From the sequence record OQ703618.1: a DNA stretch of 64,000 nucleotides. One strand, given 5' to 3'. The notes under the pieces are model-generated. The model did not search any database, was not told where the DNA came from, and saw only the letters and a program-made list of their open reading frames with translations. The position numbers and the translations under genes are program-made. Source of the stretch: Escherichia phage GADS24. Every line of letters begins with the position of its first letter. Position 1 is the stretch's first letter. Of this stretch, positions 13,372 to 61,470 are shown piece after piece.

Positions 13372-14940
13372 ATGACTACTATCAAAACTAAAGCTCAGCT
13401 CGTAGACAAATGGAAAGAACTGCTGGAAGGTGAAGGCCTGCCGGAAATCGCTAATAGCAAGCAGGCTATTATCGCTAAAATCTTCGAAAACCAGGAAAAA
13501 GATTTCGAAGTATCCCCTGAATATAAAGACGAGAAAATCGCTCAGGCATTTGGTTCTTTCTTGACCGAAGCTGAAATTGGTGGTGACCACGGTTATAATG
13601 CTCAGAACATCGCAGCAGGTCAAACCTCTGGTGCGGTAACCCAGATTGGGCCAGCAGTTATGGGTATGGTTCGTCGTGCTATTCCTAATCTGATCGCTTT
13701 TGATATTTGTGGTGTTCAGCCTATGAACAGCCCTACCGGTCAGGTATTTGCTCTCCGTGCAGTATATGGTAAAGACCCTATCGCTGCTGGCGCTAAAGAA
13801 GCTTTCCATCCGATGTATGCCCCAGACGCGATGTTCTCTGGTCAGGGTGCTGCTAAGAAATTCCCAGCTCTGGCTGCTGACACTACTACTGTTGTAGGTG
13901 ATATCTATACTCACTTCTTCCAAGAAACTGGTACTGTATATCTGCAAGCTTCTGCTATCGTAACACTTGATTCTGGTGCAACTGATGCAGCTAAATTAGA
14001 TGCAGAAGTTAAGAAACAAATGGAAGCTGGTGCACTGGTAGAAATCGCTGAAGGTATGGCTACTTCTATCGCTGAACTCCAGGAAGGTTTCAACGGTTCT
14101 ACCGATAACCCATGGAACGAAATGGGCTTCCGTATCGATAAACAAGTTATCGAAGCTAAATCTCGCCAGCTGAAAGCTGCTTACTCTATCGAATTAGCAC
14201 AAGACCTCCGTGCAGTACACGGTATGGATGCTGATGCTGAACTGAGCGGTATTCTTGCTACTGAAATTATGCTAGAAATCAACCGTGAAGTTGTTGATTG
14301 GATTAACTACTCGGCACAGGTTGGTAAATCTGGTATGACCCTGACTCCGGGTTCTAAAGCTGGCGTATTTGACTTCCAGGACCCGATTGATATCCGTGGT
14401 GCTCGTTGGGCCGGTGAAAGCTTTAAATCTCTGTTGTTCCAGATTGATAAAGAAGCAGTTGAAATTGCTCGTCAAACCGGTCGTGGTGAAGGTAACTTCA
14501 TTATCGCTTCCCGTAACGTAGTTAACGTACTGGCTTCAGTTGACACTGGTATTTCTTACGCTGCACAGGGTCTGGCTTCTGGTTTTAATACCGACACTAC
14601 TAAGTCCGTATTTGCCGGTGTACTTGGTGGTAAATACCGCGTATACATCGACCAGTATGCTAAACAGGATTACTTCACCGTTGGTTACAAAGGCGCTAAC
14701 GAAATGGATGCAGGTATTTACTATGCTCCTTACGTTGCACTTACCCCACTGCGTGGTTCCGATCCTAAGAACTTCCAGCCGGTAATGGGCTTTAAAACTC
14801 GTTACGGTATCGGTGTTAACCCGTTTGCTGAAAGTTCCCTGCAGGCTCCAGGTGCTCGCATCCAGTCCGGTATGCCGTCTATCCTGAACAGCCTTGGTAA
14901 GAACGCTTACTTCCGCCGTGTATATGTAAAAGGCATCTAA
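13372..14940 (+). CDS. 23: Major capsid protein
   Basis: 522 aa, closely matching my recollection of T4 gp23 along its length. Confidence 0.97.
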   Translation: MTTIKTKAQLVDKWKELLEGEGLPEIANSKQAIIAKIFENQEKDFEVSPEYKDEKIAQAFGSFLTEAEIGGDHGYNAQNIAAGQTSGAVTQIGPAVMGMVRRAIPNLIAFDICGVQPMNSPTGQVFALRAVYGKDPIAAGAKEAFHPMYAPDAMFSGQGAAKKFPALAADTTTVVGDIYTHFFQETGTVYLQASAIVTLDSGATDAAKLDAEVKKQMEAGALVEIAEGMATSIAELQEGFNGSTDNPWNEMGFRIDKQVIEAKSRQLKAAYSIELAQDLRAVHGMDADAELSGILATEIMLEINREVVDWINYSAQVGKSGMTLTPGSKAGVFDFQDPIDIRGARWAGESFKSLLFQIDKEAVEIARQTGRGEGNFIIASRNVVNVLASVDTGISYAAQGLASGFNTDTTKSVFAGVLGGKYRVYIDQYAKQDYFTVGYKGANEMDAGIYYAPYVALTPLRGSDPKNFQPVMGFKTRYGIGVNPFAESSLQAPGARIQSGMPSILNSLGKNAYFRRVYVKGI

Positions 14941-14964
14941 TCTTAATTGATTAAATCTTATTTT

Positions 14965-14982
14965 GGGAGACTTCGGTCTCCC
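14965..14982. terminator. Hairpin GGGAGAC-UUCG-GUCUCCC between gene 23 and the antisense ORF (bidirectional)
   Basis: 7-bp GC-rich stem with UUCG loop, T-run on the plus side. Confidence 0.7.
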
Positions 14983-14992
14983 ATTTTTGGTT

Positions 14993-15262
14993 TTATTTCT
15001 GTGCAATTTCAATGTAAGTTTTCAAAATATTTTGCCAATTAGGCATACCTTCTTGGACATATGCCGGAGAACCATCTTTGTTTTTGAATGACGCAAGTTT
15101 ATCAGTGGCCCAATAACCTTTAGCTCGAGCTTCGGAATCAACTTTCATCCATACTTTGTTGAAGGCATTACCATTAACTTTTGCACCATATTTTTCTACT
15201 AACTTAACTGCTTCAGCTTCCAGAACTTTTAAAGTATCTCGTAAGAAACGTGCTTTAGTCAT
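14993..15262 (-). CDS. Hypothetical 89-aa protein, antisense to the flanking capsid genes
   Basis: Intact ORF on the opposite strand between genes 23 and 24, preceded by an early-promoter-like element and followed by a hairpin terminator; no family recognised. Confidence 0.5.
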   Translation of the reverse strand: MTKARFLRDTLKVLEAEAVKLVEKYGAKVNGNAFNKVWMKVDSEARAKGYWATDKLASFKNKDGSPAYVQEGMPNWQNILKTYIEIAQK

Positions 15263-15292
15263 TTTGTTTACTCCTCTGTAGTTGATAAGTCT

Positions 15293-15322
15293 ATAGTATC
15301 ACATACCAAATACGTTGTAAAC
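15293..15322 (-). promoter_or_regulatory. Early-type promoter driving the antisense 89-aa ORF
   Basis: Minus strand GTTTAC, 17 nt, TGATACTAT, then GAGGAG ribosome-binding site. Confidence 0.6.
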
Positions 15323-15328
15323 AATCTT

Positions 15329-15336
15329 TATAAATA
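15329..15336 (+). promoter_or_regulatory. Late promoter TATAAATA for gene 24
   Basis: Exact motif about 28 nt upstream of the gene 24 ATG. Confidence 0.75.
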
Positions 15337-15363
15337 ATCTATATCACATAAGGAAAAAATGCA

Positions 15364-16647
15364 ATGAGTAAAATCCAAAAATTATTGCGTGAATCTACAA
15401 CGTCTACTAGCAACTCAGTTGGTCGCCCAAATCTCGTTGCTTTGACTCGCGCTACGACTAAATTAATATATTCTGACATTGTAGCAACACAAAGAACTAA
15501 TCAACCTGTTGCTGCTTTTTATGGTATCAAATATCTTAACCCAGATAACGAATTCACATTTAAAACTGGTGCTACTTATGCAGGCGAAGTTGGATATGTG
15601 GACCGAGAAAAAATTACTGAGCTCACAGAAGAATCAAAAGTCACACTAAATAAAGGCGATTTTTTCAAATATAATAATATCGTCTATAAAGTGTTAGAAG
15701 ATACACCATTTGCAGATATTCAAGAAAGTGATCTAGAATTAGCTCTTCAGATTGCAGTCGTTCATTTAAAGGTACGGTTATTTTCAGATGCAGCGGTAAC
15801 AAGCAAATTTGAAAGCTCTGATAGCGAAATTTCTGATGCAAGATTCCAGATTAATAAATGGCAAACTTCAGTCAAATCTCGTAAACTTAAAACCGGCCTC
15901 ACGGTTGAATTAGCGCAAGATTTGGAAGCGAATGGATTTGATGCCCCTAACTTCTTAGAAGATTTGCTTGCTACTGAAATGGCTGATGAAATTAATAAAG
16001 ATATCCTTCAGTCTTTAATTACTGTATCGAAACGTTATAAAGTTACTGGAATTACTGACACCGGATTTATTGACTTGAGCTATGCATCCGCTCCAGAAGC
16101 AGGTCGTTCATTATATCGAATGGTGTGTGAAATGGTATCACACATTCAAAAAGAGACAACTTATACTGCAACGTTTTGTGTAGCCTCAGCTCGTGCAGCT
16201 GCTATTCTTGCTGCTTCTGGTTGGTTAAAACATAAGCCAGAAGATGACAAGTATCTTTCACAAAATGCTTATGGATTCTTGGCAAATGGATTACCTCTTT
16301 ACTGCGATACCAACAGTCCGTTAGATTATGTTATTGTGGGTGTTGTAGAAAATATCGGCGAAAAAGAAATTGTAGGGTCCATCTTTTATGCTCCATACAC
16401 TGAAGGAGTAGATTTAGATGACCCGGAACATGTTGGTGCATTTAAAGTTGTAGTTGATCCAGAAAGCTTGCAACCGTCTATCGGATTATTGGTTAGATAT
16501 GCTTTATCAGCAAATCCTTACACAGTAGCAAAAGACGAAAAAGAAGCGAGAATAATTGATGGTGGGGACATGGATAAAATGGCAGGACGTTCAGACTTGT
16601 CTGTTTTACTCGGTGTTAAATTGCCTAAAATTATTATAGATGAATAA
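15364..16647 (+). CDS. 24: Capsid vertex protein
   Basis: 427 aa, same length as T4 gp24; late promoter TATAAATA upstream. Confidence 0.95.
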   Translation: MSKIQKLLRESTTSTSNSVGRPNLVALTRATTKLIYSDIVATQRTNQPVAAFYGIKYLNPDNEFTFKTGATYAGEVGYVDREKITELTEESKVTLNKGDFFKYNNIVYKVLEDTPFADIQESDLELALQIAVVHLKVRLFSDAAVTSKFESSDSEISDARFQINKWQTSVKSRKLKTGLTVELAQDLEANGFDAPNFLEDLLATEMADEINKDILQSLITVSKRYKVTGITDTGFIDLSYASAPEAGRSLYRMVCEMVSHIQKETTYTATFCVASARAAAILAASGWLKHKPEDDKYLSQNAYGFLANGLPLYCDTNSPLDYVIVGVVENIGEKEIVGSIFYAPYTEGVDLDDPEHVGAFKVVVDPESLQPSIGLLVRYALSANPYTVAKDEKEARIIDGGDMDKMAGRSDLSVLLGVKLPKIIIDE

Positions 16648-16657
16648 ACAAAAAAAA

Positions 16658-16673
16658 GGGACCGTAAGGTCCC
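16658..16673. terminator. Bidirectional hairpin GGGACC-GUAA-GGUCCC between gene 24 and rnlB
   Basis: A-run upstream and T-run downstream of a 6-bp stem. Confidence 0.75.
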
Positions 16674-16681
16674 TTTTTTTG

Positions 16682-30304: not shown

Positions 30305-30598
30305 TTATTTACGGAATGAAAGGAATGCCGGTGCTCGGAATGGAGTATCATCTTTAGAGTATTTAACTAATACGACCATTGGTACCTCTGTTTCTAAATG
30401 ACCTGTCACTACACCCATAAAAATTTGATCAGTGTGCTCAGGGTCACGAAAGTTTTTAAGAGGTTCCATAGCAATATGGAATGCACCTGGGAATACTCGA
30501 TTCAATTCGTCAATCACAGCTTCGTTAAAAACATCATCCGCTGGGATAGCATCTTCAACTACTAGTTCTTGACCATTAAAGCGAAGCATAGATTTCAT
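30305..30598 (-). CDS. Hypothetical protein downstream of alt
   Basis: 97 aa from the internal Met that follows the early-promoter-like element and a GAGGA ribosome-binding site; the 121-aa track ORF extends into alt. Confidence 0.55.
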   Translation of the reverse strand: MKSMLRFNGQELVVEDAIPADDVFNEAVIDELNRVFPGAFHIAMEPLKNFRDPEHTDQIFMGVVTGHLETEVPMVVLVKYSKDDTPFRAPAFLSFRK

Positions 30599-30627
30599 AA
30601 CGTTTTCCTCATGTTGTTGATGGGATG

Positions 30628-30657
30628 ATAGTATCACACATCCATGTGTTTGTAAAC
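30628..30657 (-). promoter_or_regulatory. Early-type promoter (GTTTAC / TGATACTAT family)
   Basis: Same conserved element followed by GAGGAAA and ATG. Confidence 0.6.
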
Positions 30658-38045: not shown

Positions 38046-38063
38046 GGGAGACCGAAGTCTCCC
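38046..38063 (-). terminator. Hairpin GGGAGAC-CGAA-GUCUCCC after the small basic ORF
   Basis: Identical 18-mer to the copies at 14965, 53127 and 61453. Confidence 0.6.
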
Positions 38064-41370: not shown

Positions 41371-41607
41371 TTATAGTGTTCCATATACTCGAGTTGCTTC
41401 AACAAGACCATCACTGCCTAATTTAAGATTAGTAATTTGGTCACCATCTTTAGGATTAACGATTATGAGAAAAGAACGTGGAGATTCTTGAATAACTCGT
41501 AATGTTGCATCTTGGAAACGTTCAGACACTTTATTGATGAGTGCTTGAGCAAATTCTTTTACTTTAATCTGAAATTCGTGTACTGTAATTGGGTTTTCAC
41601 TTAGCAT
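41371..41607 (-). CDS. Hypothetical protein
   Basis: 78-aa ORF between DAHP synthase and pseT. Confidence 0.5.
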   Translation of the reverse strand: MLSENPITVHEFQIKVKEFAQALINKVSERFQDATLRVIQESPRSFLIIVNPKDGDQITNLKLGSDGLVEATRVYGTL

Positions 41608-41634
41608 TTCTATTTCCTCATTTGTTGGTAGAGT

Positions 41635-41665
41635 TATAGTATCACAACTCCACCATGTTGTAAAC
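41635..41665 (-). promoter_or_regulatory. Early-type promoter (family member)
   Basis: GTTTAC / TGATACTATA with GAGGAAA ribosome-binding site. Confidence 0.55.
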
Positions 41666-44649: not shown

Positions 44650-45137
44650 GTTTTAATAATCTCAATGATTTCGTCTCGGGATAATCCGTTGATAAGAACG
44701 GTTTTCGGACCATCACACTGGATTTTGTACGATTCAAACAATACACACAACTCTTCTGCTGTATGATAAGGACTTGAGATTCCGAGGCGGTTGAATTTGT
44801 CGGTAAGAGGGTCGCAAATAATGTAGAATTTTATACCTGCGATATGTACGTTTGGTTGACTAATATTAATGAACACATTAGCGTCATATTTAGTCAAATT
44901 GTTTTGAAGAAATTCTACCATGGTGTTAACTGCTTCTGGCATCGCTTCGCGTTTCTCTTCAGCGTATCGGGTGGAATATTCCTTTTGCTTTAACTTCTTT
45001 TTAGCATTTTTCGCTAGAGTAGTACGAAGGTCAGTAAGATAACCAACTGCACGGCCTTTCTTAAAGACCCGGATTCCATCTGTAGAATCACCAAATGCTG
45101 CCACAACCATATCGTTAGTAATCAATTGCATATTCAT
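44637..45137 (-). CDS. alc: Alc-like protein (host transcription unfolding), assigned by position
   Basis: 166 aa from the internal Met that follows an early-promoter-like element and GAGGAGA ribosome-binding site; lies between spanin and rnlA as alc does in T4. Confidence 0.6.
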   Translation of the reverse strand: MNMQLITNDMVVAAFGDSTDGIRVFKKGRAVGYLTDLRTTLAKNAKKKLKQKEYSTRYAEEKREAMPEAVNTMVEFLQNNLTKYDANVFINISQPNVHIAGIKFYIICDPLTDKFNRLGISSPYHTAEELCVLFESYKIQCDGPKTVLINGLSRDEIIEIIKTCLK

Positions 45138-45167
45138 AATTTTCTCCTCGTGTTGTTGATAAAAGCC

Positions 45168-45198
45168 ATAGTAACACCTTCCTTGGTGTTTGTAAACC
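45168..45198 (-). promoter_or_regulatory. Early-type promoter upstream of alc
   Basis: GTTTAC / TGTTACTAT with GAGGAGAAA ribosome-binding site. Confidence 0.55.
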
Positions 45199-52338: not shown

Positions 52339-52587
52339 TTATTTCCTCAGATTTTTCTTAACAACTTTCCAATCAGCTTTAAACTGTTCAACATCAGAAT
52401 GGTAAATCCAGAATCCTGCGCTTTCTCCATCTTCGTAGAGCGGACATCCATCACATTCTTCGTTCCAACCCATTTCACGCAAAAGACGTTCAGCTTTTTC
52501 AACAAGTTCAGAATCTTTACCGATGATATTAAAATACCATTTACCTCTAACTTCTGAATCTTTAATGCTCTGGCGTTGCAATCTCAT
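52339..52587 (-). CDS. Hypothetical protein (frd.2 position)
   Basis: 82-aa ORF with an early-promoter-like element upstream. Confidence 0.55.
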   Translation of the reverse strand: MRLQRQSIKDSEVRGKWYFNIIGKDSELVEKAERLLREMGWNEECDGCPLYEDGESAGFWIYHSDVEQFKADWKVVKKNLRK

Positions 52588-52614
52588 TTTATTCTCCTCA
52601 GTAGTTGATAGGGT

Positions 52615-52646
52615 AATAGTATCACACTACTACCCTTCTGTAAACT
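52615..52646 (-). promoter_or_regulatory. Early-type promoter (family member)
   Basis: GTTTAC / TGATACTATT with GAGGAGAA ribosome-binding site. Confidence 0.55.
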
Positions 52647-53126: not shown

Positions 53127-53144
53127 GGGAGACCGAAGTCTCCC
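53127..53144 (-). terminator. Hairpin GGGAGAC-CGAA-GUCUCCC downstream of gene 32
   Basis: Identical 18-mer family member. Confidence 0.6.
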
Positions 53145-55424: not shown

Positions 55425-56331
55425 TAATTACACTTGTTAATTTAGAAAGACCAGATTTTACAAAGTATGAATAAATCTTGCCTTTAGGTTGTGGTTTATA
55501 TGAGTTATAATACTCTATAATGGTTGAAGCAATATTATCAGGGATATAATCAAAATCAATGAGAACCAAATTTTCTTGATACCGTTTATATTCTTCAGCA
55601 CTTAATAATACTTCAGCTTGAGAACGGTCGTTAGCAATTGCTTCAATAATTGATGTTTTCATGCTCGGAGTTCGTTCACCATCAACTCTAGTAAACCAGA
55701 AGTCGCCACGAACTCGAACAGATGCAACACCATCCTTACGGTCGCCTTTAAGAATTTTAGTCATGCAATCAATTTCAGCAGAACCGTTCTTAATTTTAAC
55801 CCATTTTTTCTGTGGTGGCGACCACTGTTTAACGTTAGGATATTTATGTAATTGTGTAAAGTCACCATCTGATGCAACAATACATACCTTATGTCCAGCT
55901 AATGACAAATATTTGGTTAATACACCAATATGGTCATCCGCTTCATACTTGTCAATATCCATTACAACGTATGGCATGTATTTCTTAATCTCATCAACAA
56001 CTTGATGGAGTGCAGTAAAATATCCTTCCCAATCCCACTTTGAAGCTTCACGATCGGTTTTACGATTTTTCTTGTAATAGTAAGCAAAGTCACGACGCCA
56101 ATAACCTGAAGTAGCATTATCCATACACAATACAAATTTTGTATAGCCTTGCTTACGGAACATCACTACGTTTTTACGAATTGAATTCAAGATTACATGG
56201 CGAACCATCGGAACAGTAATTTTATCGCCATCTTCAAAGTTGTTTAATGCAGCTGCCAATGCAATGTTACTAAAGTCGGCAAGTGCAATACCTTCTTTGT
56301 AATCTTCATCCAACATCATTTCTAAATCCAT
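55414..56331 (-). CDS. rnh: RNase H (5'-3' exonuclease / flap endonuclease)
   Basis: 305 aa, same length as T4 RNase H. Confidence 0.9.
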   Translation of the reverse strand: MDLEMMLDEDYKEGIALADFSNIALAAALNNFEDGDKITVPMVRHVILNSIRKNVVMFRKQGYTKFVLCMDNATSGYWRRDFAYYYKKNRKTDREASKWDWEGYFTALHQVVDEIKKYMPYVVMDIDKYEADDHIGVLTKYLSLAGHKVCIVASDGDFTQLHKYPNVKQWSPPQKKWVKIKNGSAEIDCMTKILKGDRKDGVASVRVRGDFWFTRVDGERTPSMKTSIIEAIANDRSQAEVLLSAEEYKRYQENLVLIDFDYIPDNIASTIIEYYNSYKPQPKGKIYSYFVKSGLSKLTSVINEF

Positions 56332-56361
56332 ATGAACCTCTTGTTCAGTTAGTCAACTTGT

Positions 56362-56393
56362 CTATAGTAACATACTCATTTGAAAGCGTAAAC
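56362..56393 (-). promoter_or_regulatory. Early-type promoter upstream of rnh
   Basis: GTTTAC / TGTTACTATAG; sits back-to-back with the gene 34 late promoter. Confidence 0.55.
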
Positions 56394-61452: not shown

Positions 61453-61470
61453 GGGAGACTTCGGTCTCCC
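61453..61470 (+). terminator. Hairpin GGGAGAC-UUCG-GUCUCCC after gene 35
   Basis: Identical 18-mer followed by a T-run. Confidence 0.7.

Follow-up and report, generated by a model that had tools for sequence, protein, structure and literature searches.

The window analyzed here is a stretch of 64,000 nucleotides from Escherichia phage GADS24 (OQ703618.1), a Mosigvirus of the RB69/JS09/PhAPEC2-like T4 type, and it covers the head-gene cluster of the phage, in which plus-strand open reading frames (ORFs) encode gp20, gp67, gp68, gp21, gp22, gp23, and gp24, with rnlB, 24.2, 24.3, and hoc lying beyond gene 24 on the minus strand. The spacer between genes 23 and 24 holds a minus-strand ORF with a product of 89 amino acids (aa), together with the promoter and leader elements listed in Table 1. 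An earlier sequence-only reading had singled out this ORF and the interval 14941-15363, and both are found where it placed them, the interval being exactly the gene 23-gene 24 spacer (gp23 stop at 14940, gp24 start at 15364). Over 1.1 kb, the locus shares 98.7-99.6% identity with dozens of Mosigvirus genomes.

Table 1. Features of the gene 23-gene 24 spacer and its flanking genes, in window coordinates.
Feature	Coordinates	Strand	Basis and remarks
Gene 23, major capsid protein	13372-14940	+	522-aa ORF; so annotated in 99%-identical phages; left flank
Gene 23 intrinsic terminator	14965-14998	+	Stem-loop GGGAGAC-UUCG-GUCUCCC (14965-14982) and T-run
89-aa ORF, RB69ORF188c homolog, PHROG 6003	14993-15262	-	ORF call, PHROG match, purifying selection
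Shine-Dalgarno (SD) sequence GAGGAG	15271-15276	-	8 nt before the ATG; GGAG kept across the eight-lineage alignment
T4-type early (sigma-70) promoter	15293-15322	-	-35 GTTTAC(A) at 15317-15322; extended -10 TGATACTAT at 15293-15301
Gene 24 late promoter TATAAATA	15329-15336	+	Divergent from the early promoter and abutting it; TATTTAT invariant in the eight-lineage alignment
Gene 24, capsid vertex protein	15364-16647	+	427-aa ORF and annotations in relatives; right flank

The 89-aa ORF belongs to a family of hypothetical proteins on record as RB69ORF188c, VR7ORF190c, or PHROG 6003, and it matches the PHROG 6003 profile along its entire length (E=2.1e-45, residues 1-89 on profile positions 1-90 of 90). 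The window protein shares 100% identity with many Mosigvirus copies and does not differ from PhAPEC2_170, which is annotated as 'similar to RB69ORF188c'. The gene is thus already known as hypothetical in more than 200 genomes, and the family is unmentioned, under the names RB69ORF188c, VR7ORF190c, PHROG 6003, or PhAPEC2_170, in searchable papers. A tblastn search locates the ORF in 239 phage records, at a coverage of at least 80% in 237 of them, comprising about 120 Mosigvirus copies with at least 95% identity and about 119 copies with 30-38% identity in Dhakavirus and Gaprivervirus. In every T4-like case examined the ORF lies antisense between genes 23 and 24, and two metagenomic T4-like lineages (61% and 70% identity) display the identical antisense arrangement. 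Coding constraint was assessed on Nei-Gojobori (NG86) pairwise counts, with the ratio of nonsynonymous to synonymous substitution (omega) taken for unsaturated pairs. The window and PhAPEC2 ORFs differ by five synonymous and no nonsynonymous changes, the proportion of synonymous differences (pS) exceeds that of nonsynonymous differences (pN) in all pairs compared, and omega amounts to 0.07 for both WG01 and 04086 against LF82-1, 0.14 for WG01 against 04086, and 0.16 for the window against a 173-kb metagenomic phage. With its synteny intact and its omega low, the ORF hence shows coding-type conservation and is a genuine protein-coding gene under purifying selection, as had been supposed from the sequence.

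T4 early promoters combine a -35 element GTTTAC(A), a spacer of about 17 nt, an extended -10 element TGnTAnnAT, and an AT-rich upstream region. The sequence preceding the ORF fits this consensus in all four respects, and can be read either as GTTTAC, a 15-nt spacer, and TGATACTAT or, in a consensus scan, as TTTACA-17-TACTAT with a TG before the -10. The position of a would-be UP element is occupied by the AT-rich late-promoter sequence of gene 24, of which the motif TATAAATA has 18 copies in the window against seven expected. The sequence-only reading had assigned the ORF promoter and its GAGGAG to a conserved early-promoter family, an assignment upheld by the six occurrences of GTTTAC-N15-18-TGNTANNAT in 64 kb, all of them on the minus strand, where 0.03 would be expected. 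The copies have in common a leader of the form ...ATCAAC[A/T]AC[A/T]GAGGAG..., with the ATG located 28-32 nt past the -10. Alignment of eight lineages over the stretch between the start of gene 24 and that of the cargo reveals that the reverse complement of TATAAATA, the T-TAC-A of the -35, and the G..A..AT of the extended -10 are invariant, while the spacer between -35 and -10 varies freely. Such invariant elements around a freely varying spacer are the footprint of a functional promoter. The five other promoter-leader units of the window (30598-30657, 41607-41665, 45137-45197, 52587-52645, and 56331-56393) are likewise on the minus strand, and at least four of the five carry the leader ...A[T/C]CAAC[A/T]A... 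and an SD. Behind them lie genes for three small proteins (PHROGs 1739, 1504, and 1254), an Alc homolog, and an RNase H (rnh) homolog. In T4, alc and rnh are early genes, and Alc is an inhibitor of host transcription.

The hairpin GGGAGACTTCGGTCTCCC is confirmed downstream of the ORF, beginning 10 nt past its stop codon on the minus strand, but it does not serve as the ORF's own terminator, as the sequence-only reading had it. Only on the plus strand does the T-run ATTTTTGGTTTTATTT come after the hairpin, a scan scores a terminator on that strand, and the UUCG loop, as it had been written in that reading, is that of the plus-strand RNA. Along the ORF strand the hairpin reads GGGAGACCGAAGUCUCCC and then AAAAUAAG, and a U-tract looked for 3' of it on the minus strand was not there, the strand running on as AAAAUAAGAUUU. 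Read from the plus strand, the stem-loop folds at -16.1 kcal/mol (z -4.3), against -13.5 kcal/mol for its minus-strand counterpart. Slots devoid of any antisense gene, namely those of RB32, Kanagawavirus IME523, Klebsiella phage Mexia, and Karamvirus RZH, contain this hairpin and its T-run too, followed by some 10 nt and then by TATAAATA and the gene 24 SD. The stem shows compensatory changes between lineages, the window having GGGAGAC/GTCTCCC, T4 GGGAACC/GGTTCCC, Mexia GGGAGCC/GGCTCCC, and both RB32 and VR20 GGGACC…GGTCCC, and T-runs occur on both sides of the hairpin in VR20 only. Within the window, GGGAGAC-UUCG-GUCUCCC is present in four identical copies (14965-14982, 38046-38063, 53127-53144, and 61453-61470) against 0.03 expected, each of them, on the strand with the UUCG loop (plus at 14965), directly preceded by a co-oriented stop codon and followed by a T-run. 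The plus-only T-run, the presence of the hairpin in empty slots, the stop-codon and T-run context of its copies, and the compensatory changes in its stem therefore identify it as the terminator of gene 23, older than the antisense cassette. The antisense transcript may use it as a 3'-end stabilizer or partial stop, rather than as a canonical terminator in that direction. The four-copy hairpin looks like a reused terminator module, and its copy at 61453 has TATAAATA behind it, an order also seen in gene 23-gene 24 slots without cargo.

The gene 23-gene 24 slot had been portrayed as a plasticity hotspot holding segD in T4, and comparison across T4-like genomes agrees on both counts, with a minus-strand GIY-YIG endonuclease, SegD, standing alone in T4 and a cargo that differs by lineage. 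The ORF is the only cargo in Mosigvirus, WG01, and VR20, it is accompanied in LF82-1, mobillu, JM10, and 04086 by a SegD-like endonuclease whose start codon lies 4 bp past the ORF stop, phiR1-RT has an unrelated large endonuclease, and the four phages named above for their empty slots have none. The notion that the ORF is a recent or alternative occupant taking the place of segD does not survive this comparison, given that it is a long-standing resident of Mosigvirus, Dhakavirus, Gaprivervirus, and the two metagenomic lineages, and that it sits beside SegD-like genes in some phages. The early promoter was not present in the empty gene 23-gene 24 slots examined; promoter, leader with SD, and ORF hence constitute an insert, bounded by the terminator of gene 23 on one side and the late promoter of gene 24 on the other, and all carriers have the same junction with the late promoter.

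The limits of cargo exchange can be traced in LF82-1 (L006 2994-3926), which has a Mosigvirus backbone. Its identity to the window, 94.8%, breaks off 8 nt before the ORF ATG and resumes, at 97.9%, with the final bases of the endonuclease gene and with the hairpin, while the intervening 930 nt have no match in the window. Those 930 nt match Dhakavirus (04086 over both genes, WG01 over the ORF) and, within the endonuclease, T4 segD, the SegD-like protein of LF82-1 being 57% identical to T4 SegD. Furthermore, the gp24 proteins of LF82-1 and the window are 97.9% identical, but their small proteins are only about 32% identical. The contrast between the identity of the flanks and the foreign interior therefore establishes the promoter-leader and the hairpin as exchange points for cargo, with breakpoints at the SD and the hairpin in LF82-1, and the exchange has possibly been helped by homing-endonuclease co-conversion. 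Like LF82-1, mobillu and JM10 harbor a Dhakavirus-type ORF allele and a SegD-like gene, in place of the resident ORF, on a Mosigvirus backbone. In 04086 (L004), the endonuclease apparently has no annotation, and that of gene 23 is incomplete.

A promoter-like sequence, positionally homologous to the early promoter of the window, also precedes segD in T4 (NC_000866; L010 5734-5823, minus), where it reads TATTTAT-AAAGTT-ATTTAC-N15-TGATATTAT, followed by GGAG and the segD ATG. Previous work inferred that no segD promoter exists, described segD transcript levels as 'vanishingly low', and proposed that segD is expressed by read-through from the rnlB/24.2 promoters (Edgell et al., 2010; PMC2988022). 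A time-resolved dual-omics study of T4 classes segD as early RNA and middle protein, with SegD peptides quantified by mass spectrometry at rising intensity (PMC9697503, supplements 4-6), and this classing runs against the former inference. On the strength of the promoter consensus, the other members of the promoter family, and the T4 segD data, it is reasonable to infer that the ORF would be expressed early in GADS24.

Homologs of the ORF extend beyond the T4-like phages. Distant relatives, 35-45% identical, are found amid long runs of small co-oriented genes in the Vequintavirinae (rV5-like) phage ABPH49 and in a similar 35-kb contig, and a further one lies in a siphovirus-like contig, where the tail module is on one side of it and a divergent replication module on the other. 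All of these non-T4-like copies come with a sigma-70-like -35/-10 of their own and, downstream, with a GC hairpin, and the L017 copy features a terminator hairpin directly before its promoter, which is the canonical layout of promoter-early/stem-loop (PeSL) cassettes. On the other hand, the ORF is absent from T4 and RB32, and a frameshift breaks it into pieces of 38 and 51 aa in mogra, a viable Mosigvirus (L018 301-569), so the gene appears to be accessory and non-essential. The close relative moha has an intact ORF and provides a counterpart to mogra.

An AlphaFold2 model built on a six-sequence alignment (predicted local distance difference test, pLDDT, 84.7; predicted template modeling score, pTM, 0.73) depicts the product as a predicted small helical bundle with a beta-hairpin, with helices at residues 3-25, 31-48, and 76-88 and the hairpin at residues 56-70. 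Among the six aligned T4-like members, invariant residues include F6, L14, N30-G31-N32-A33-x-N35 at the start of helix 2, W51, G64, and Q70, with W51 replaced by F in the rV5-like relatives. The homologs are all hydrophilic and Cys-free, and eight of the nine are basic, with an isoelectric point (pI) of 9.5-9.8; the window protein is soluble, with a pI of about 9.6.

The product had been described from its sequence as resembling nothing recognized and as no recognizable GIY-YIG endonuclease, and profile and structure searches concur, having produced no characterized protein, domain, or fold and no similarity to SegD. A Foldseek search of PDB with the ORF model returned no significant match, a fold search of BFVD returned only an unnamed 88-aa homolog, the PDB sequence-profile search gave no meaningful match, and no GIY-YIG or other Pfam domain scored above threshold. 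Similarity to a characterized counter-defense protein was likewise absent from the PDB and BFVD fold searches and the PDB sequence searches, and PADLOC, which covers defense proteins, reported nothing, no anti-defense hidden Markov model library having been searched. An exhaustive HMMER search of 1.84 billion representatives yielded 10 matches and a word-indexed protein search few relatives, and the family is therefore small. Several candidate matches were discarded. A partial match to Pfam DUF4859 (17.9 bits, E=0.0029) falls below the gathering threshold of 22.6 bits, and NCBIfam matches, with E values of 0.015-0.04 against 500-600-bit cutoffs, are noise. Two giant proteins among the HMMER matches, P0013 (1347 aa, matching in eight stretches) and P0016 (3916 aa, in 11 stretches), are surface proteins of the Big_2/LRR and filamin/CBM type; their matches lie on all-beta Ig-like repeats, run through a short W-x-[ST]...D-G-x-x-x-V/Y-x-x-E-G motif, and owe their score to summation over the repeats, and they were rejected as repeat artifacts.

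The organization of the locus recalls the PeSL ORFan cassettes of T4-type phages (Arbiol et al., 2010, PMC2839356; Comeau et al., 2014, PMC4122927). In both, a lone ORF of unknown function stands between a GC stem-loop and a recurring early-promoter motif preceded by AT-rich sequence, and these motifs coincide with insertion or replacement boundaries between related phages (here LF82-1 and the window). PeSLs have been described, however, in the hyperplastic non-structural regions of RB49/phi1, T4/PST, and KVP40/nt-1, whereas the window cassette lies antisense within the core head-gene cluster, where it is among few early units so placed. The window stem-loop at the 3' end of the ORF is, unlike that of a PeSL, the resident gene 23 terminator and hence external to the cassette, and the promoter is of the T-even 'GTTTAC' early type instead of a plain sigma-70 consensus. 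The T4 segD locus offers a closer parallel, with the same slot and antisense orientation, the same flanks (TATTTATAAAG, then (A/G)TTTAC-N15-TGATA(C/T)TAT, then an SD), and a terminator hairpin downstream, but its 223-aa product differs from the 89-aa protein, which lacks a GIY-YIG domain and SegD similarity and has no Tequatrovirus match by tblastn. With small early T-even takeover or anti-defense proteins, such as Alc and MotB, the ORF product shares its small size, an early promoter of the family that precedes the alc homolog, a non-essential character, and a patchy distribution, but no sequence or fold relationship to Alc, MotB, or the T-even counter-defense proteins was found. The cassette type is already known, the gene is already annotated, and the whole is an ordinary kind of phage accessory-gene cassette. 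Its long retention under purifying selection nonetheless makes the gene a cleaner candidate for functional work than most ORFans, and natural variants are on hand in the mogra frameshift, the LF82-type allele swap, and the empty slots. The shared socket and the predicted segD promoter are useful by-products, and a shared expression socket with exchangeable cargo would constitute a concrete, testable answer to the question of how T4 segD is expressed without an identified promoter.

These observations can be accommodated in a model, to which we assign a probability of roughly 0.6, in which the locus is a self-contained antisense early-expression cassette, made up of promoter, leader with SD, and one small ORF, set after the gene 23 terminator and before the gene 24 late promoter, and the product is a binding effector. 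Straight after infection, host sigma-70 RNA polymerase would start at GTTTAC/TGATACTAT and transcribe the 89-codon gene leftward into the gene 23 hairpin, which would probably act there as a 3'-stabilizing hairpin or a weak stop. The product, a presumably cytoplasmic, small, basic helical protein with a beta-hairpin, non-essential and under purifying selection, would most likely bind a host or defense macromolecule, whether protein or nucleic acid, in the early phase of infection. At late times, that promoter would be silent, with genes 23 and 24 transcribed across and around it in the opposite direction. On an evolutionary scale, the promoter-leader and the hairpin would double as homology blocks through which the cargo could be swapped, be it the ORF, a divergent allele, a SegD-type endonuclease, or nothing. 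Any statement on the molecular target and role of the protein within this scheme is speculative.

Several considerations weigh against the cassette and binding-effector model. The early signal of T4 segD could be read-through from rnlB/24.2, with rnlB, 24.2, and 24.3 falling in the same class; in the window, a hairpin at 16651-16680 separates rnlB from gene 24 and would limit read-through from rnlB. No transcript or protein data for GADS24 or any other Mosigvirus were found in the literature, and the mogra frameshift could be a sequencing error. The product shows no similarity to any characterized protein, domain, or fold, and its proposed role as a binding effector is drawn from context. Lastly, its retention at one locus over three genera is less typical of anti-defense genes, with their fast turnover, and could mean a housekeeping-like role in the phage.

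As regards the function of the product, two proposals stand ahead of the rest. The foremost, though held tentatively and at less than even odds, is that of a counter-defense or host-takeover effector that neutralizes a bacterial immunity system or host function early in infection. An early-type promoter, small size, a location in a hotspot, horizontal spread among unrelated virulent coliphages as a stand-alone cassette, and apparent dispensability on K-12 (mogra) all argue for such an effector. The likeness does not, however, extend to homology or fold, as none to known anti-defense or takeover proteins was detected and no literature was found; many anti-defense genes are patchy, whereas this one is stably retained in three genera with low omega, and small T4-type early genes are so diverse in function that the prior is modest. 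Next, and more doubtful, comes a small basic factor that binds and acts on nucleic acid, be it DNA or RNA of the phage or of the host, as a regulator or nucleoid-associated modulator in the manner of T4 MotB, instead of a protein directed at a defense target. The persistence of a pI of 9.5-9.8 in eight of nine homologs despite identities of about 30% is consistent with this proposal, as are several very weak Foldseek matches to winged-helix (WH) and other DNA-binding domains (DnaD-N, ORC2 WH, transcription factors).

The remaining explanations are less likely than either. The pairing of the ORF with a SegD-like gene, 4 bp away, co-oriented, and swapped in together with it in LF82-1, as well as the same pairing in mobillu and JM10 and the occupation of the same socket by segD in T4, would suit a passenger of homing-endonuclease traffic, co-converted by a flanking SegD-type homing site, or a protein that modulates or protects against the endonuclease. 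Such a link is unlikely, as the ORF occurs without any endonuclease in the majority of carriers (about 120 Mosigvirus records, WG01, and VR20), the rV5-like and siphovirus contexts have no adjacent endonuclease, and purifying selection acts on the ORF protein itself. It is a little harder still to credit that the product is an antisense RNA, with early transcripts entering the 3' end of gene 23 and modulating the expression or timing of capsid genes, even if the minus-strand side of the hairpin has no U-tract in the window and T4, and the early promoter stands head-to-head with the gene 24 late promoter. The strong constraint at the protein level is inexplicable by an RNA-only role, leaving any RNA effect at most as an add-on, homologs in other phages are antisense to nothing, and many T4-like phages do without any cargo in the slot. 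Least probable of all is a factor in capsid assembly or one associated with the virion, and the virion-protein idea was rejected, having behind it only a position in the head-gene cluster and a non-significant PHROG match to an 'internal virion protein' (E=0.09); the ORF is antisense, its promoter is early instead of late, PhAPEC2 does not flag it as a structural virion protein although its neighbors are so flagged, its homologs elsewhere are outside head modules, and T4 lacks it, as do many T4-like phages that have the same capsid. Building on the counter-defense or takeover proposal, a wider synthesis can be offered as a tentative possibility, well below the cassette model in probability, whereby an early effector with a new fold moves as a promoter-ORF-hairpin cassette among T4-like, rV5-like, and siphovirus-like coliphages, and the gene 23-gene 24 spacer acts as an antisense expression socket whose cargo is exchanged via the promoter-leader and the hairpin, which would also explain segD expression.

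Variation around the capsid genes is also seen on the far side of gene 24. The hairpin at 16651-16680, between the convergent gene 24 (plus) and rnlB (minus), has a 13-bp stem, AAAAAAAGGGACC-TTAC-GGTCCCTTTTTTT, and is flanked by A/T runs on both sides, which gives it the look of a bidirectional terminator; at the equivalent position, the PhAPEC2 annotation has terminators on both strands. This hairpin is all that the window has at the gene 24-rnlB junction, whereas a DprA-like gene lies between gene 24 and rnlB in Klebsiella phage Mexia (L014 2812-3360) and Karamvirus RZH (L015 2817-3362), and the junction may hence be another variable one beside the capsid genes. Finally, two tandem gp24 paralogs (vertex proteins I and II) are found in Dhakavirus, Gaprivervirus, Kanagawavirus, and one metagenomic lineage (L002 1-2394, L003 1-2399, L007 1337-3901, and L013 1501-4063), while the window, T4, and LF82-1 have a single gp24.

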